64,000 nucleotides of DNA from NCBI RefSeq assembly GCF_003334305.1, contig NZ_QOWS01000003.1; one strand, given 5' to 3'. This DNA is from Escherichia coli (GTDB lineage Bacteria; Pseudomonadota; Gammaproteobacteria; Enterobacterales; Enterobacteriaceae). The position numbers are program-made. Within the stretch, counting starts at the first letter, position 1. The number at the start of each line of letters is the position of its first letter. This document shows positions 40,701 through 46,700 of the stretch, one piece after another.

Positions 40701-43700
40701 AGGCGGCAAGCGTCGTCAGGTCGGTAAAAAGGTAAACTTTGAGCCAGACAGCGCCTTCCGCGGTGAGAAAAAAACGAAGCCGAAAGCGGCGAAGAAAGAC
40801 GCGAGAAAAGCGAAAAAGCCATCGGCGAAAACGCAGAAAATAGCCGCAGCGACCAAAGCGAAGCGTGCGGCGAAGAAAAAAGTGGCAGAGTGATCAATAC
40901 CCTCTTTAAAAGAAGAGGGTTAGATTGCTGACAAAATGCGCTTTGTTCATGCCGGATGCGGCGTGAACGCCTTATCCGGCCTACATAATCACGCAAATTC
41001 AATATATTGCAGAGATCATGTAGGCCGGATAAACGTAGTGCATCAGGCAAAACGTAAACAACGAGTACATTAATGAGCGAAATGATTTACGGCATCCACG
41101 CAGTGCAGGCCCTGCTGGAGCGCGCCCCTGAACGTTTTCAGGAAGTCTTTATTTTAAAAGGCCGTGAAGATAAACGTCTGTTACCGCTGATTCACGCCCT
41201 TGAGTCTCAGGGCGTGGTTATCCAGTTGGCAAACCGCCAATATCTCGACGAGAAAAGCGACGGTGCCGTGCATCAGGGCATTATCGCCCGCGTGAAGCCA
41301 GGACGTCAGTATCAGGAAAATGATCTGCCGGATCTGATCGCTTCGCTCGATCAACCGTTCCTGCTAATCCTCGACGGTGTAACCGATCCGCACAACCTCG
41401 GCGCGTGCCTGCGTAGCGCGGACGCTGCTGGCGTTCACGCGGTGATTGTGCCGAAAGATCGCTCCGCACAGCTCAACGCTACGGCGAAAAAAGTAGCCTG
41501 CGGCGCGGCAGAAAGCGTTCCACTGATTCGGGTGACTAACCTTGCGCGCACCATGCGTATGTTGCAGGAAGAGAATATCTGGATCGTCGGTACGGCAGGC
41601 GAGGCGGATCATACACTCTATCAGAGCAAAATGACCGGACGCCTGGCGCTGGTGATGGGCGCGGAAGGTGAAGGTATGCGTCGCCTGACCCGTGAACATT
41701 GCGATGAGTTGATCAGCATCCCAATGGCAGGAAGTGTTTCTTCCCTGAACGTTTCGGTTGCAACCGGAATTTGCTTATTTGAAGCGGTTCGTCAGCGCAG
41801 CTAGTTCGTCTGAATTATGAAAAGCCATCCAGATTTGGATGGTTTTTTTTTGTCTATAGCTGGTAAGATAATTACGTACTGCAAATATTCATTTTATTAA
41901 TATTTAAACTAAATCTATATGGAATAATATATGACATGGAATCCGTTGGCGCTGGCGACGGCGCTGCAAACTGTACCTGAACAAAATATTGATGTGACAA
42001 ATAGCGAGAGCGCATTAATTATTAAAATGAATGATTATGGCGATTTGCAAATCAATATTCTTTTTACTTCCCGCCAAATGATTATCGAAACCTTTATTTG
42101 TCCGGTAAGTAGTATCAGCAATCCAGATGAATTTAATACCTTCTTATTAAGAAATCAGAAGATGATGCCGTTGTCATCGGTAGGAATCTCCAGCGTGCAA
42201 CAGGAAGAGTATTACATTGTTTTCGGGGCGTTATCGCTTAAATCTTCTCTTGAAGATATCCTGCTTGAGATAACCTCGCTGGTAGATAACGCATTGGATC
42301 TGGCTGAAATTACAGAAGAATATTCACACTAATTACAAGGACGGGTATTTATGGGAATTTTAAAAAGTTTATTTACGCTGGGGAAATCGTTTATCTCCCA
42401 GGCGGAAGAATCCATTGAAGAAACCCAGGGCGTGCGCATGCTGGAACAGCATATTCGTGACGCTAAAGCTGAACTCGATAAAGCCGGAAAATCTCGCGTT
42501 GATCTGCTGGCGCGGGTGAAATTAAGTCACGATAAGCTGAAAGATTTACGTGAGCGCAAAGCCAGTCTGGAAGCCCGTGCGCTGGAAGCGTTAAGCAAGA
42601 ACGTTAATCCGTCGTTGATTAACGAAGTTGCTGAAGAAATCGCGCGCCTTGAGAATCTCATTACCGCTGAAGAGCAAGTGTTGTCGAATCTGGAAGTCTC
42701 CCGTGATGGCGTGGAAAAAGCAGTTACAGCGACAGCGCAGCGTATCGCTCAGTTTGAGCAGCAAATGGAAGTCGTTAAAGCCACTGAAGCCATGCAGCGT
42801 GCACAACAGGCTGTAACAACCTCTACCGTTGGCGCATCTTCCAGCGTTTCGACAGCGGCAGAATCCTTAAAACGCCTGCAAACGCGTCAGGCCGAACGTC
42901 AGGCTCGCCTGGATGCTGCTGCACAGTTGGAAAAAGTCGCAGACGGTCGCGATCTTGATGAAAAGCTGGCGGAAGCCGGAATTGGCGGTAGCAATAAAAG
43001 TAGCGCCCAGGATGTATTAGCAAGACTGCAACGCTAACAGGGCGAGTAATTTTTTTGCCAGCCTCGCTAAAAGGCTGGCAACTATTTTAAGGATAAAATA
43101 TGTCTGGTTTTTTCCAGCGTCTGTTTGGCAAGGATAATAAGCCTGCTATCGCTCGCGGTCCGCTGGGACTTCATCTCAATAGTGGCTTTACGCTCGACAC
43201 GTTAGCGTTTCGTTTGCTGGAAGATGAATTGCTGATTGCGCTGCCGGGTGAGGAATTTACGGTAGCCGCTGTCAGCCACATCGATCTGGGCGGCGGTAGT
43301 CAGATTTTCCGCTACTACACTTCAGGCGATGAATTTCTGCAAATCAATACCACCGGCGGCGAAGATATTGATGACATTGATGATATCAAGCTCTTTGTCT
43401 ATGAAGAGAGCTACGGTATCAGTAAAGAGAGTCACTGGCGCGAGGCGATCAACGCCAAAGTGATGGGGGCAATGATCTTAAACTGGCAGGAAAAACGCTG
43501 GCAGCGATTTTTTAACAGCGAAGAACCGGGAAATATCGAACCCGTCTACATGCTGGAAAAAGTAGAAAATCAAAACCATGCCAAATGGGAGGTCCATAAT
43601 TTTACCATGGGCTACCAACGCCAAGTAACCGAAGATACTTACGAATATTTGCTGTTAAATGGTGAGGAATCTTTTAACGATCTCGGCGAGCCAGAGTGGT

Positions 43701-46700
43701 TATTTTCGCGCGCGTTGGGTGTCGATATCCCGCTGACATCACTTCATATTATTGGTTAATTACAAGGACGTTTACAATGCATATACTGGATTCACTTCTT
43801 GCCTTTAGTGCCTATTTTTTTATTGGCGTGGCTATGGTGATTATTTTTCTGTTTATCTACTCCAAAATTACACCGCACAACGAATGGCAATTAATCAAAA
43901 ACAATAATACCGCGGCGTCACTGGCATTCAGCGGTACATTGTTGGGTTACGTGATCCCCTTATCCAGTGCGGCAATCAATGCGGTGAGTATTCCAGACTA
44001 TTTCGCCTGGGGCGGGATTGCACTGGTGATTCAGTTACTCGTTTTTGCTGGTGTCAGACTTTATATGCCCGCATTAAGCGAAAAAATTATTAATCACAAT
44101 ACCGCAGCAGGAATGTTTATGGGAACCGCCGCACTGGCTGGTGGTATTTTTAACGCAGCTTGTATGACATGGTAATGGACGATCATGGCCAGAAAACGCA
44201 AATCAAGAAATAACAGTAAAATTGGTCACGGAGCGATCAGTCGCATTGGAAGACCGCATAATCCTTTTGAGCCGCGCCGCAATCGCTACGCACAAAAATA
44301 CTTAACGTTGGTGCTAATGGGCGGTGCCGTTTTTTTAATAGTCAAAGGATGGAGTGAAAGTGGCGATGTCGATAACGACGGCGACGGAACGTTTTATTCG
44401 ACAGTGCAGGATTGTATTGATGACGGTAATAATGCCGACATTTGCGCGCGTGGCTGGAACAACGCCAAAGCGGCATTTTATGCCGATGTTCCGAAGAATA
44501 TGACTCAGCAGAATTGTCAGTCTAAGTACGAAAATTGCTACTACGACAATGTTGAACAGAGTTGGATCCCGGTCGTTTCTGGATTTTTGTTAAGCCGAGT
44601 TATTCGTAAAGATCGCGATGAGCCGTTCGTCTATAACAGCGGCGGATCCTCATTTGCTTCCCGCCCCGTCTGGCGCAACACTTCCGGTGATTACTCCTGG
44701 CGCTCCGGTTCTGGCAAAAAAGAGTCTTACTCTTCAGGCGGCTTTACCACCAAAAAAGCGTCAACCGTTTCGCGCGGCGGCTATGGTCGTTCTTCCAGCG
44801 CCCGTGGGCATTGGGGAGGCTAATCATGCTGAGACACAACGTTCCTGTGCGACGGGATCTGGACCAGATCGCCGCTAACAACGGTTTCGACTTTCATATC
44901 ATCGACAATGAAATCTATTGGGACGAGAGTCGGGCTTACCGTTTTACTCTGCGCCAGATTGAAGAGCAGATCGAAAAACCGACTGCGGAACTGCATCAGA
45001 TGTGCCTTGAGGTGGTGGATCGCGCGGTTAAAGACGAAGAGATCCTGACGCAACTGGCGATCCCGCCGTTGTACTGGGATGTGATCGCCGAAAGCTGGCG
45101 CGCACGCGATCCTTCGCTGTATGGCCGGATGGATTTTGCCTGGTGTGGCAATGCGCCGGTGAAGCTGCTGGAGTACAACGCCGATACGCCGACCTCGTTG
45201 TATGAGTCGGCTTATTTCCAGTGGTTGTGGCTGGAGGATGCCCGGCGCAGCGGCATTATTCCGCGTGATGCCGATCAGTACAATGCCATTCAGGAACGCC
45301 TGATTTCACGCTTTAGCGAGCTTTATAGCCGGGAGCCGTTTTATTTCTGCTGCTGTCAGGACACCGATGAAGACAGGACTACCGTGCTGTACTTGCAGGA
45401 CTGCGCCCAGCAGGCAGGGCAGGAGTCGCGGTTTATCTACATTGAAGATCTCGGTTTGGGCGTCGGCGGTGTACTGACCGATCTTGATGATAATGTCATC
45501 CAGCGTGCATTTAAGCTGTATCCGCTGGAGTGGATGATGCGTGACGATAACGGTCCGCTGCTGTGCAAGCGTCGCGAGCAATGGGTGGAGCCGTTATGGA
45601 AAAGTATCTTGAGTAATAAAGGGCTAATGCCGCTGCTTTGGCGCTTCTTCCCTGGTCATCCTAACCTTCTTGCATCCTGGTTTGAGGGTGAAAAATCGCA
45701 GATTGCCGCTGGCGAAAGCTATGTGCGTAAACCGATCTACTCGCGCGAAGGCGGAAACGTCACCATTTTCGACGGTCAGAATAACGTCGTTGACCACGCT
45801 GATGGTGATTACGCCGATGAACCGATGATCTACCAGGCGTTTCAACCTCTGCCGCGATTTGGCGATAGCTACACACTCATCGGTAGCTGGATTGTCGATG
45901 ATGAAGCGTGCGGAATGGGGATCCGTGAAGATAACACACTGATCACCAAAGACACCTCACGTTTCGTTCCGCATTACATTGCTGGATAAGAATGTTTTAG
46001 CAATCTCTTTCTGTCATGAATCCATGGCAGTGACCATACTAATGGTGACTGCCATTGATGGAGGGAGACACAGTGCACTGGCAAACTCACACCGTTTTTA
46101 ATCAACCTATACCATTAAATAACAGTAACTTATACCTGTCTGATGGCGCGCTCTGCGAAGCGGTAACGCGTGAAGGTGCTGGCTGGGATAGCGATTTTCT
46201 AGCCAGTATTGGTCAGCAGTTAGGAACGGCTGAATCCCTTGAACTGGGGCGGCTGGCGAATGTGAATCCGCCTGAATTATTGCGCTACGATGCGCAAGGA
46301 CGCCGTCTGGACGATGTGCGTTTTCACCCCGCCTGGCACCTGCTGATGCAGGCGCTATGTACCAATCGGGTGCACAATCTTGCCTGGGAAGAAGACGCTC
46401 GCTCCGGCGCATTTGTGGCGCGCGCGGCGCGTTTTATGTTGCACGCACAGGTTGAGGGCAGGGTCGTTATGTCCGATAACCATGACCTTTGCCGCCACGC
46501 CATTGCTGTTACAGATGTTACCCGCGCCGTTTCAGGACTGGACCACGCCGCTGCTGAGCGATCGCTACGATTCTCACTTATTGCCAGGTGGGCAAAAACG
46601 CGGTTTGTTGATTGGCATGGGAATGACGGAAAAGCAGGGCGGTTCCGATGTCATGAGCAACACCACCCGCGCAGAGCGCCTGGAAGATGGCTCTTATCGG

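Follow-up and report, generated by a model that had tools for sequence, protein, structure and literature searches.

The yjfIJKLMC operon of Escherichia coli occupies positions 41931-45989 of the stretch analysed here, a segment of 64,000 nucleotides (nt) from contig NZ_QOWS01000003.1 (assembly GCF_003334305.1) that we refer to in full as the window. Its last two genes encode a DUF1190 protein and a stand-alone ATP-grasp ligase, and comparison of this pair with its relatives leads us to a tentative proposal, that the conserved Gly-Gly tail of the DUF1190 protein is the substrate of the ligase next door. Along the + strand the genes run in the order rnr-rlmB-yjfI-yjfJ-yjfK-yjfL-yjfM-yjfC-aidB, and the six genes of the operon, with lengths in amino acids (aa), are as follows.

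41931-42332, + strand: yjfI (133 aa), DUF2170, CesT/Tir-like, a homologue of the Pseudomonas aeruginosa regulator BacA.
42351-43037, + strand: yjfJ (228 aa), a PspA/IM30 coiled-coil protein of the ESCRT-III superfamily.
43100-43759, + strand: yjfK (219 aa), DUF2491, predicted soluble and all-beta, without a signal peptide.
43777-44175, + strand: yjfL (132 aa from its ATG; the mechanical open reading frame (ORF) begins upstream at a GTG), a predicted DUF350 integral membrane protein.
44185-44823, + strand: yjfM (212 aa), DUF1190.
44826-45989, + strand: yjfC (387 aa from its ATG), a stand-alone GspS-family ATP-grasp ligase without an amidase domain.

The ORF map gave intergenic gaps of 18, 62, 17, 9 and 2 nt from yjfI to yjfC, confirming the six co-directional genes with gaps of 2-62 nt that a preliminary description made from the sequence had placed here, and a Pfam-A search (E from 1.6e-17 to 3.5e-149) bore out all six of its domain assignments. 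This is an operon already known and annotated: the RefSeq annotation of a 100% identical genome has the same six coding-sequence boundaries. The window belongs to the E. coli chromosome, and several complete genomes match positions 41700-46100 with 100% identity. All 5426 complete E. coli genomes contain a match to the operon region (at least 80% query coverage in 5327), and in 5407 of them the whole operon is at least 95% identical. No mobility genes flank it in the annotated neighbourhood, and an Rfam scan of 41700-46150 at E <= 1 returned no RNA family.

The ligase is the best-characterised member of the set. YjfC matches Pfam GSP_synth (PF03738, E = 3.5e-149), and all 387 of its residues match the chain of PDB 7UK6/7UK7, deposited as 'Putative acid--amine ligase YjfC' (2.6e-271). 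It lacks the N-terminal CHAP amidase domain, being 387 aa long compared with 619 aa for Gss, and its NCBIfam PRK10507 score of 164 (cut-off 882) comes from the C-terminal part of the model only. Beyond YjfC and its E. coli relative YgiC, the closest solved enzymes are GspS and trypanothione synthetase (TryS), both of which activate the Gly carboxylate of glutathione. The K-12 RefSeq product name of both YjfC and YgiC is 'peptide--spermidine ligase', an in vitro activity that citing papers credit to Pederick et al. (Biochemistry 2023;62:899). According to the account of this work in a TolC review, the physiological substrate of the peptide-spermidine ligase activity "remains unknown", and YgiC, in the same review's summary of Sui 2012, a paper that compares YjfC as well, has no glutathionylspermidine synthetase activity. 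The view that the biochemistry of these genes is undescribed is therefore outdated, given the 7UK6/7UK7 structures, the RefSeq ligase name, the activity reported in Pederick 2023 and, for the YjfI relative BacA, a structure (8Q8O) and a phenotype; what has been published defines an in vitro activity for YjfC and no function for the operon as a whole.

The genomic setting of the ligase was surveyed from an alignment of 52 diverse YjfC-family proteins (2997 representatives at E <= 0.001 in a 50%-clustered library), with which 80 ligase-anchored loci were collected from one-genome-per-species contigs; six-frame ORFs of these loci were then classed by jackhmmer seeded with the E. coli proteins. 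A DUF1190 gene lies immediately 5' of the ligase in 67 of the 80 loci, as it does in the window, where yjfM and yjfC are 2 nt apart. In ten further loci (nine of a Bradyrhizobium type with DUF350, plus L055) the position is held instead by a DUF1190-like protein of 133-142 aa with the same ends. Taking the two together, a DUF1190 or short DUF1190-like gene adjoins the ligase upstream in 77 of 78 assessable loci, the ligase standing at a contig edge in the other two; the exception, L030, has no such gene. Where paralogous pairs occur, each ligase has its own DUF1190 (E. coli, L004/L051; Mangrovibacter, L005/L064; a metagenome-assembled genome, L006/L078). The association was also seen in reverse, starting from a DUF1190 profile: four of four proteins looked up have GSP_synth 3-5 nt downstream, GSP_synth being present wherever the downstream product carried a Pfam label (L084, L085, L086, L089, L090 and L091), and two of these four DUF1190 genes have DUF350 upstream as well (Pfam labels, L084-L086).

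The remaining genes of the operon are more loosely attached. DUF350 is present in 46 of the 80 loci, and YjfI, YjfJ and YjfK accompany YjfL-YjfM-YjfC in 24, distributed over Gamma-, Alpha- and Deltaproteobacteria. Co-occurrence across genomes, which the preliminary description had proposed as a check, is thus borne out for all six families. These full-set loci come from Enterobacterales, Alteromonadales, Vibrionales, Oceanospirillales, Xanthomonadales, Chromatiales and a metagenome-assembled genome of Desulfurivibrionaceae, with a rearranged version in Pseudovibrio. DUF350 and the ligase occur without YjfI-YjfJ in 22 loci, 12 of them with DUF1190 as YjfL-YjfM-YjfC or YjfK-YjfL-YjfM-YjfC and 10 with the short DUF1190-like protein. 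A TolC match was found in 17 of the 80 loci, in 15 of them directly upstream as tolC-ygiB-ygiC, and the remaining ligase-anchored loci consist of YjfM-YjfC alone. The operon had been taken for a single module, and this holds in so far as its six genes are co-conserved; at the same time the set is divisible, its YjfL-YjfM-YjfC part standing alone in many genomes. Because YjfL-YjfM-YjfC, YjfM-YjfC and tolC-ygiB-ygiC all occur without YjfI-YjfJ-YjfK, the operon is modular, YjfI-YjfJ(-YjfK) having been fused to YjfL-YjfM-YjfC. Of extra flanking genes, S-adenosylmethionine decarboxylase and spermidine synthase included, none recurs in the proteobacterial loci except a K+ channel gene, described below.

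What marks the DUF1190 proteins is their C-terminus. YjfM (PF06693, E = 1.6e-17) is laid out as a basic N-terminal region, a signal/anchor segment, an acidic domain with four Cys residues that are conserved in alignments (C77, C87, C111 and C118) and a basic tail; this tail, of the RGGFG...GG type, is SRGGYGRSSSARGHWGG and terminates ...STVSRGGYGRSSSARGHWGG-COOH. Enterobacterial YjfM orthologues share no more than 42-72% identity over their length, yet their final 20 residues (STVSRGGYGRSSSARGxWGG) are near-invariant, and the C-terminus of YgiB reads TRGGFG...SRSMGG. A Gly-Gly end is present in 63 of 68 DUF1190 proteins of the ligase-anchored loci, the others ending in GS, AG or SG, and in 10 of 10 short Bradyrhizobium-type proteins. 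A set of 120 DUF1190 proteins was retrieved independently of the ligase: 116 of them have GG at the end and every one contains R[GSN]GFG, while the stretch from this motif to the C-terminus is 11 to 63 residues long and variable in sequence. Since motif and terminal dipeptide are both near-fixed and the spacer varies, selection bears on the motif and the dipeptide, not on the residues between them. In the Bradyrhizobium loci, the short DUF1190-like gene is separated from the ligase by a second mini-ORF of 72-90 aa (L043:9741-9959, L047:9752-9973 and L070:9719-9991), whose product starts with a signal-like sequence and has a ...GGFGG...HGGG or HGGS tail, so that each ligase would have two candidate tail-bearing proteins.

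The topology of these proteins bears on whether a cytoplasmic enzyme could reach the tail. A lipobox is present in 59 of 66 full-length DUF1190 proteins, and most have five Cys, the lipobox Cys plus four more, a combination that implies export. Median charges are +6 for the N-terminal region, -7 for the Cys-rich middle and +8.5 for the C-terminal ~84 aa, and this pattern, found in 65 of 66 proteins, would fit an in-out-in topology with a cytoplasmic tail. A Met/Gly-rich hydrophobic patch is conserved between the middle and C-terminal regions; its hydrophobicity (median Kyte-Doolittle 1.03) is too weak for us to call it a transmembrane helix. The YjfM of the window has no lipobox Cys, carrying C56W (VKGW versus LKGC in K-12). 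This loss falls inside a 121-nt patch of yjfM (44280-44400, codons ~33-72) that encodes the signal/anchor stretch and is hypervariable within E. coli: its identity to the window is at least 99% in 537 genomes, 95-99% in 734, 90-95% in 3054 and 80-90% in 1059.

A possible encounter between ligase and tail was modelled with AlphaFold 2 (AF2) as a fusion, YjfC-(G4S)6-YjfM(last 35 aa), run with a 30-row paired alignment and judged by the predicted local distance difference test (pLDDT) and secondary structure. The ligase was predicted at pLDDT >90 and the linker at <50, and the tail segment KASTVSRGGY formed a beta strand with a mean pLDDT of 76, a value obtained without a scrambled-tail control. 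Such a prediction would agree with the recognition motif docking on the ligase; it does not show the terminus in the active site.

The other half of the operon begins with YjfI, which matches DUF2170 (PF09938, E = 1.7e-44) and, over residues 3-128, the crystal structure of BacA (PDB 8Q8O, E = 4.4e-17). With the NCBIfam BacA equivalog it scores 93.6 (1.1e-26), under the cut-off of 300, and on this basis we place it in the DUF2170/BacA family without regarding it as a BacA orthologue. YjfJ matches PspA_IM30 (PF04012, 7.4e-57) across residues 2-228, corresponding to model positions 1-216 of 220. Its pairwise similarity to E. coli PspA is not significant (E = 2), and no solved structure matches it by sequence; the published YjfJ structure is a homology model only (Rychel 2025, PMC12492005). 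Judged by its domain and neighbours, YjfJ is a PspA-family protein outside any canonical Psp system. In the window yjfJ stops four codons before the K-12 end (CAA->TAA, 43035-43037), giving 228 versus 232 aa and widening the yjfJ-yjfK gap to 62 nt versus 50 nt in K-12. YjfK matches DUF2491 (E = 1.6e-70); its predicted structure is all-beta with high confidence, and a Foldseek search of AFDB50 with the model returned DUF2491 proteins only. It has neither a signal peptide nor a hydrophobic segment, and invariant Arg, Glu, Tyr and Gln residues are kept. We also considered its C-terminal Gly as a conserved ligase substrate and rejected this, many homologues ending in -IT or -NT. YjfL matches DUF350 (E = 1.4e-33), and its hydrophobic segments suggest a small polytopic membrane protein.

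Drawing these observations together, we think it close to an even proposition that yjfIJKLMC is a composite envelope-stress operon built from two older modules. The first would be YjfI-YjfJ, usually with YjfK: YjfI may be a small CesT/BacA-like chaperone or regulator; YjfJ, a very divergent PspA/ESCRT-III-type protein, would be expected to form polymers that stabilise the inner membrane from its cytoplasmic face; and YjfK would be the soluble, all-beta DUF2491 member. The second would comprise YjfL as a DUF350 membrane protein, YjfM as a membrane-anchored or lipoprotein DUF1190 and YjfC as a cytoplasmic ATP-grasp ligase that, going by the activity in the literature, would join spermidine to a peptide's C-terminal carboxylate. 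Its acyl substrate would be the C-terminal Gly of YjfM, as that of YgiC would be YgiB: the ligase would recognise the RGGFG motif and then amidate the terminal Gly-Gly with a polyamine, turning an anionic C-terminus into a polycationic one and altering how the protein interacts with the envelope. We infer that YjfM is the substrate, that YjfJ repairs membranes and that the two modules are functionally coupled.

The envelope link rests on the PspA-family membership of YjfJ, the induction during heat adaptation described below and the Cpx-induced ygiB. That the operon is an envelope-stress or membrane-modification module, as the preliminary description had suggested, agrees with published inference (Ravi 2024, PMC11237479; Rychel 2025, PMC12492005), and ygiB is described as induced by the Cpx envelope stress response in Citrobacter rodentium.

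We hold the substrate assignment itself with less confidence. GspS and TryS activate the Gly carboxylate of glutathione and YjfC reportedly amidates peptide C-termini with spermidine, and for these reasons the C-terminal Gly of the adjacent DUF1190 protein (YjfM or YgiB) is a candidate, if a doubtful one, for the physiological substrate. In the same tentative spirit, DUF1190 proteins might be dedicated substrates whose Gly-Gly is amidated with spermidine or another amine by a translationally coupled ligase, a widespread proteobacterial form of C-terminal polyamine tagging of an envelope protein; and, with no greater assurance, the yjf operon might couple such tagging to a membrane-repair protein of the PspA/ESCRT-III type and, in its ancestral state, to an RCK-gated K+ channel as well. 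Conjugates of this chemistry exist in eukaryotes, where SUMO carries Gly-Gly-spermidine at its C-terminus (PMC12270671).

Several observations count against this proposal. Tails without a terminal GG make up 4 of 120 and 5 of 78 proteins in the two sets, and both of those whose loci were looked up, P0379 (...FGSAST; L087-L089) and P0390 (...SSLGS; L090-L091), keep GSP_synth 3-5 nt downstream, so that the terminal GG is no absolute correlate of the ligase. In the AF2 fusion the last 12 residues, the terminal GG among them, were placed at a pLDDT of only 27-44. Because of the lipobox in 59 of 66 proteins and, mostly, four further Cys, the DUF1190 domain is placed in the periplasm, and the tail is probably there too, beyond an ATP-dependent cytoplasmic enzyme unless it is modified before export; a second hydrophobic segment able to bring the tail back into the cytoplasm is no more than marginal. 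The choice lies between a cytoplasmic tail, modification ahead of Sec export, and a substrate hypothesis that is wrong. Finally, the iModulon that contains these genes holds yjfIJKL without yjfMC (Rychel 2025, PMC12492005), and the two modules may therefore differ in expression.

Many of the same data could be read another way. YjfC may make a small soluble peptidyl-polyamine, comparable to glutathionylspermidine, which YjfL would export or sense and which a periplasmic YjfM would bind or depend on; the YjfM tail would then serve otherwise, for instance in membrane, peptidoglycan or metal binding. This is a real if somewhat unlikely possibility. It accords with the apparent export of DUF1190, with DUF350 being the next most constant neighbour (46 of 80 loci) and with the failure of AF2 to dock the terminal GG. 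The reported in vitro activity, moreover, is on peptides, with the physiological substrate given as not known in the TolC review, and Ravi 2024 (PMC11237479), in its treatment of the family, calls DUF1190 a metal-chelating lipoprotein. A soluble product leaves unexplained, however, why the last two DUF1190 residues are fixed despite a variable preceding 11-63 and why the DUF1190-ligase gap is almost always 2-5 nt, and YgiC, as the TolC review relates Sui 2012, lacks the synthetase activity that would yield glutathionylspermidine.

In 11 of 23 colinear full operons, yjfJ and yjfK are separated by a gene for an MthK-like K+ channel, with a pore and an RCK-type domain, and in Vibrio and others this gene is found upstream of (YjfK-)YjfL-YjfM-YjfC. 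Only 19 of the 5426 complete E. coli genomes have it, and it is missing from the window and from 99.6% of E. coli genomes. In the E. coli locus L004 it occupies L004:3070-4140 and overlaps its neighbours' start and stop codons, whereas the window (43038-43099) and K-12 have a 47-nt spacer with a stem-loop, unrelated to the channel-bearing L004. E. coli has lost a K+ channel gene that ancestrally stood between yjfJ and yjfK. A further membrane protein, of ~188 aa (MNSIIKPLNYNQHF...), recurs in 7 marine gammaproteobacterial loci with full operons, just 3' of the ligase or divergent upstream (e.g. L009:11239-11805). Three non-coding features lie in or before the operon.

43055-43081, + strand: stem-loop with a 10-bp stem in the yjfJ-yjfK spacer (-17.1 kcal/mol, z = -1.83).
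41819-41851, + strand: intrinsic terminator of rlmB from the terminator scan, with a hairpin of 13 bp and, after it, the (T)9 tract 41843-41851.
41852-41930, + strand: AT-rich leader/promoter region of yjfI, whose promoter sequence was not pinpointed by the scans.

The fold of the spacer stem-loop is not clearly above shuffles, and we rejected it as an attenuator. The rlmB terminator folds at -16.9 kcal/mol (z = -4.25). A sigma-70 scan of 41852-41930 found no consensus match, with no more matches than in shuffles, and no sigma-54 site (TGGCAC-N5-TTGCA, <=3 mismatches) lies in 41805-41930 upstream of yjfI.

This upstream region is where adaptation to heat has acted. In strains evolved for growth at 45 °C, yjfIJKL, which form one iModulon, are strongly induced without exception (Rychel 2025, PMC12492005), and the authors ascribe the induction to a 1-nt deletion 80 bp 5' of yjfI, given in their supplementary table as DEL (T)9->8, rlmB/yjfI intergenic, +47/-80. 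The (T)9 run struck by this deletion is the U-tract of the rlmB terminator at 41843-41851; either rlmB read-through or a new promoter could be responsible for the activation of yjfIJKL.

The composition of this iModulon, yjfIJKL only, is also one reason to consider that yjfIJ(KL) and yjfMC are separate units, adjacent by chance and acting independently in E. coli. The wide occurrence of YjfL-YjfM-YjfC, YjfM-YjfC and tolC-ygiBC without YjfI-YjfJ fits such an arrangement, as do the stem-loop between yjfJ and yjfK and the YjfI-YjfJ-type dyads found with other partners, in the bac operon and in what Ravi 2024 (PMC11237479) sets out as groups 1 and 2. Chance adjacency sits poorly, however, with six families kept colinear across many orders (24 loci, one rearranged Alphaproteobacterial case included) and with gaps of 2-62 nt that hold no terminator-grade signal (z = -1.83 for the spacer stem-loop), and we judge it improbable.

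Rychel 2025 proposed for the heat-evolved strains that YjfJ, YjfK and YjfL each add pore-like membrane structures, YjfK as a primitive outer-membrane beta-barrel porin, with a benefit under heat through membrane protein crowding or efflux of misfolded proteins. The strong rise of yjfIJKL in all heat-evolved strains (PMC12492005) and the confident all-beta model of YjfK speak for this; we nonetheless find it very improbable, and rejected YjfK as a porin, on account of its lack of a signal peptide or hydrophobic segment and its invariant Arg, Glu, Tyr and Gln. Least credible is an anti-phage defence or mobile-element cargo module: PspA was originally discovered as a phage-shock protein and YjfJ gives weak coiled-coil matches to LmuB and JetC models (E about 1e-3), but a PADLOC scan found no family for the other five proteins, YjfJ matches as a generic coiled-coil, and the genes belong to the core set, occupy one fixed place on the chromosome in all 5426 E. 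coli genomes and have no mobility genes beside them.

Downstream of yjfC, aidB (46055-47699) has one extra G compared with K-12 (GG->GGG, at about 46454-46456), which divides it into overlapping ORFs at 46055-46714 and 46380-47699. The gene is intact in RM10042, whose genome is identical to the window over 41700-46100, and the disruption is either a strain pseudogene or a sequencing error.

The operon is core to E. coli and DUF1190-ligase dyads are widespread in Proteobacteria; at stake are what the two peptide-spermidine ligases of E. coli act on in vivo and what its second PspA-family protein does. If the tail is the substrate, polyamine amidation of a protein C-terminus would be a bacterial protein modification of a new kind; it would tie polyamine metabolism to envelope stress and would help to account for the tolC-ygiBC/yjfMC genetic interaction and for why lethal temperatures select for yjfIJKL expression. 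Otherwise, a correctly read, already catalogued operon remains.

Among known systems, the closest description is that of Ravi 2024 (mSystems, PMC11237479), where this operon type appears as the third group of CesT/Tir-PspA operons and PspA-based membrane dynamics are proposed to be coupled to polyamines. As set out there, the group has a DUF2170/CesT-like protein, PspA of the yjfJ family, a GspS-like ligase, a four-transmembrane DUF350 protein, a DUF1190 lipoprotein and DUF2491, a gene set that our 80-locus survey reproduces. It differs from the window, and from 99.6% of E. coli genomes, in including a ligand-gated K+ channel, and in its discussion of this group the DUF1190 C-terminus is not linked to the ligase, a link proposed in the present analysis.

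Within E. coli itself, tolC-ygiB-ygiC offers a parallel: YgiC matches YjfC (3.2e-128) and has structures (7UK8/7UKA), YgiB is a DUF1190 protein, and the two genes are 5 nt apart. Joint deletion of ygiBC and yjfMC, as cited in later work, modifies the growth defect of tolC mutants. Unlike the yjf operon, this locus is tolC-linked and Cpx-induced and has no PspA, DUF2170, DUF2491 or DUF350 partners, and YgiB has a canonical LAGC lipobox where the YjfM of the window has none. GspS/Gss and trypanothione synthetase share the ATP-grasp synthetase domain with YjfC (PDB 2VOB, 8.8e-38; 2IO7, 1.2e-32) and, as reported in the literature, spermidine as amine substrate; they have an extra CHAP amidase domain, however, YjfC aligning only to residues ~253-626, and YgiC, by the TolC review's account of Sui 2012, reportedly makes no glutathionylspermidine.

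For the first module the comparison is with pspF-pspABCDE and with the P. aeruginosa Biofilm Associated Cluster, bacABCDEF. Like PspA, YjfJ is a full-length PspA_IM30 protein in a stress-induced operon tied to envelope integrity, but the yjf operon has no PspB, PspC or PspF neighbours and no sigma-54 promoter, and has a CesT-like partner instead. The bac operon likewise has six genes, with the DUF2170 protein BacA first and the PspA-family BacB second. BacA is a negative regulator of its own operon, its loss raising the other Bac proteins 6- to 13-fold, and because of this phenotype a regulatory role for YjfI is plausible by analogy. The bac operon differs in that its authors propose a sigma-54 promoter, in that the phenotypes described for it are those of biofilm and rhamnolipid, and in that neither the operon nor its surroundings are reported to contain a spermidine synthase homologue; BacC-F are described only as function-unknown proteins.

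RimK modifies the C-terminal carboxylate of ribosomal protein S6. This reaction and the joining of SUMO or ubiquitin to spermidine resemble the one proposed here in forming an ATP-dependent amide bond on the C-terminal carboxylate of a specific protein, and for SUMO a donor with a Gly-Gly end is joined to spermidine as the acceptor (PMC12270671). They differ in that RimK adds glutamates to a substrate whose gene is not adjacent, and in that SUMO-spermidine is made by E1 and E2 enzymes (PMC12270671), not by an ATP-grasp ligase, the modification of YjfM being hypothesised only. New relative to this literature are the two-module locus survey and the near-invariant DUF1190 tail beside the ligase, and a conserved Gly-Gly tail next to a peptide-spermidine ligase makes the question of the substrate a simple problem for mass spectrometry.

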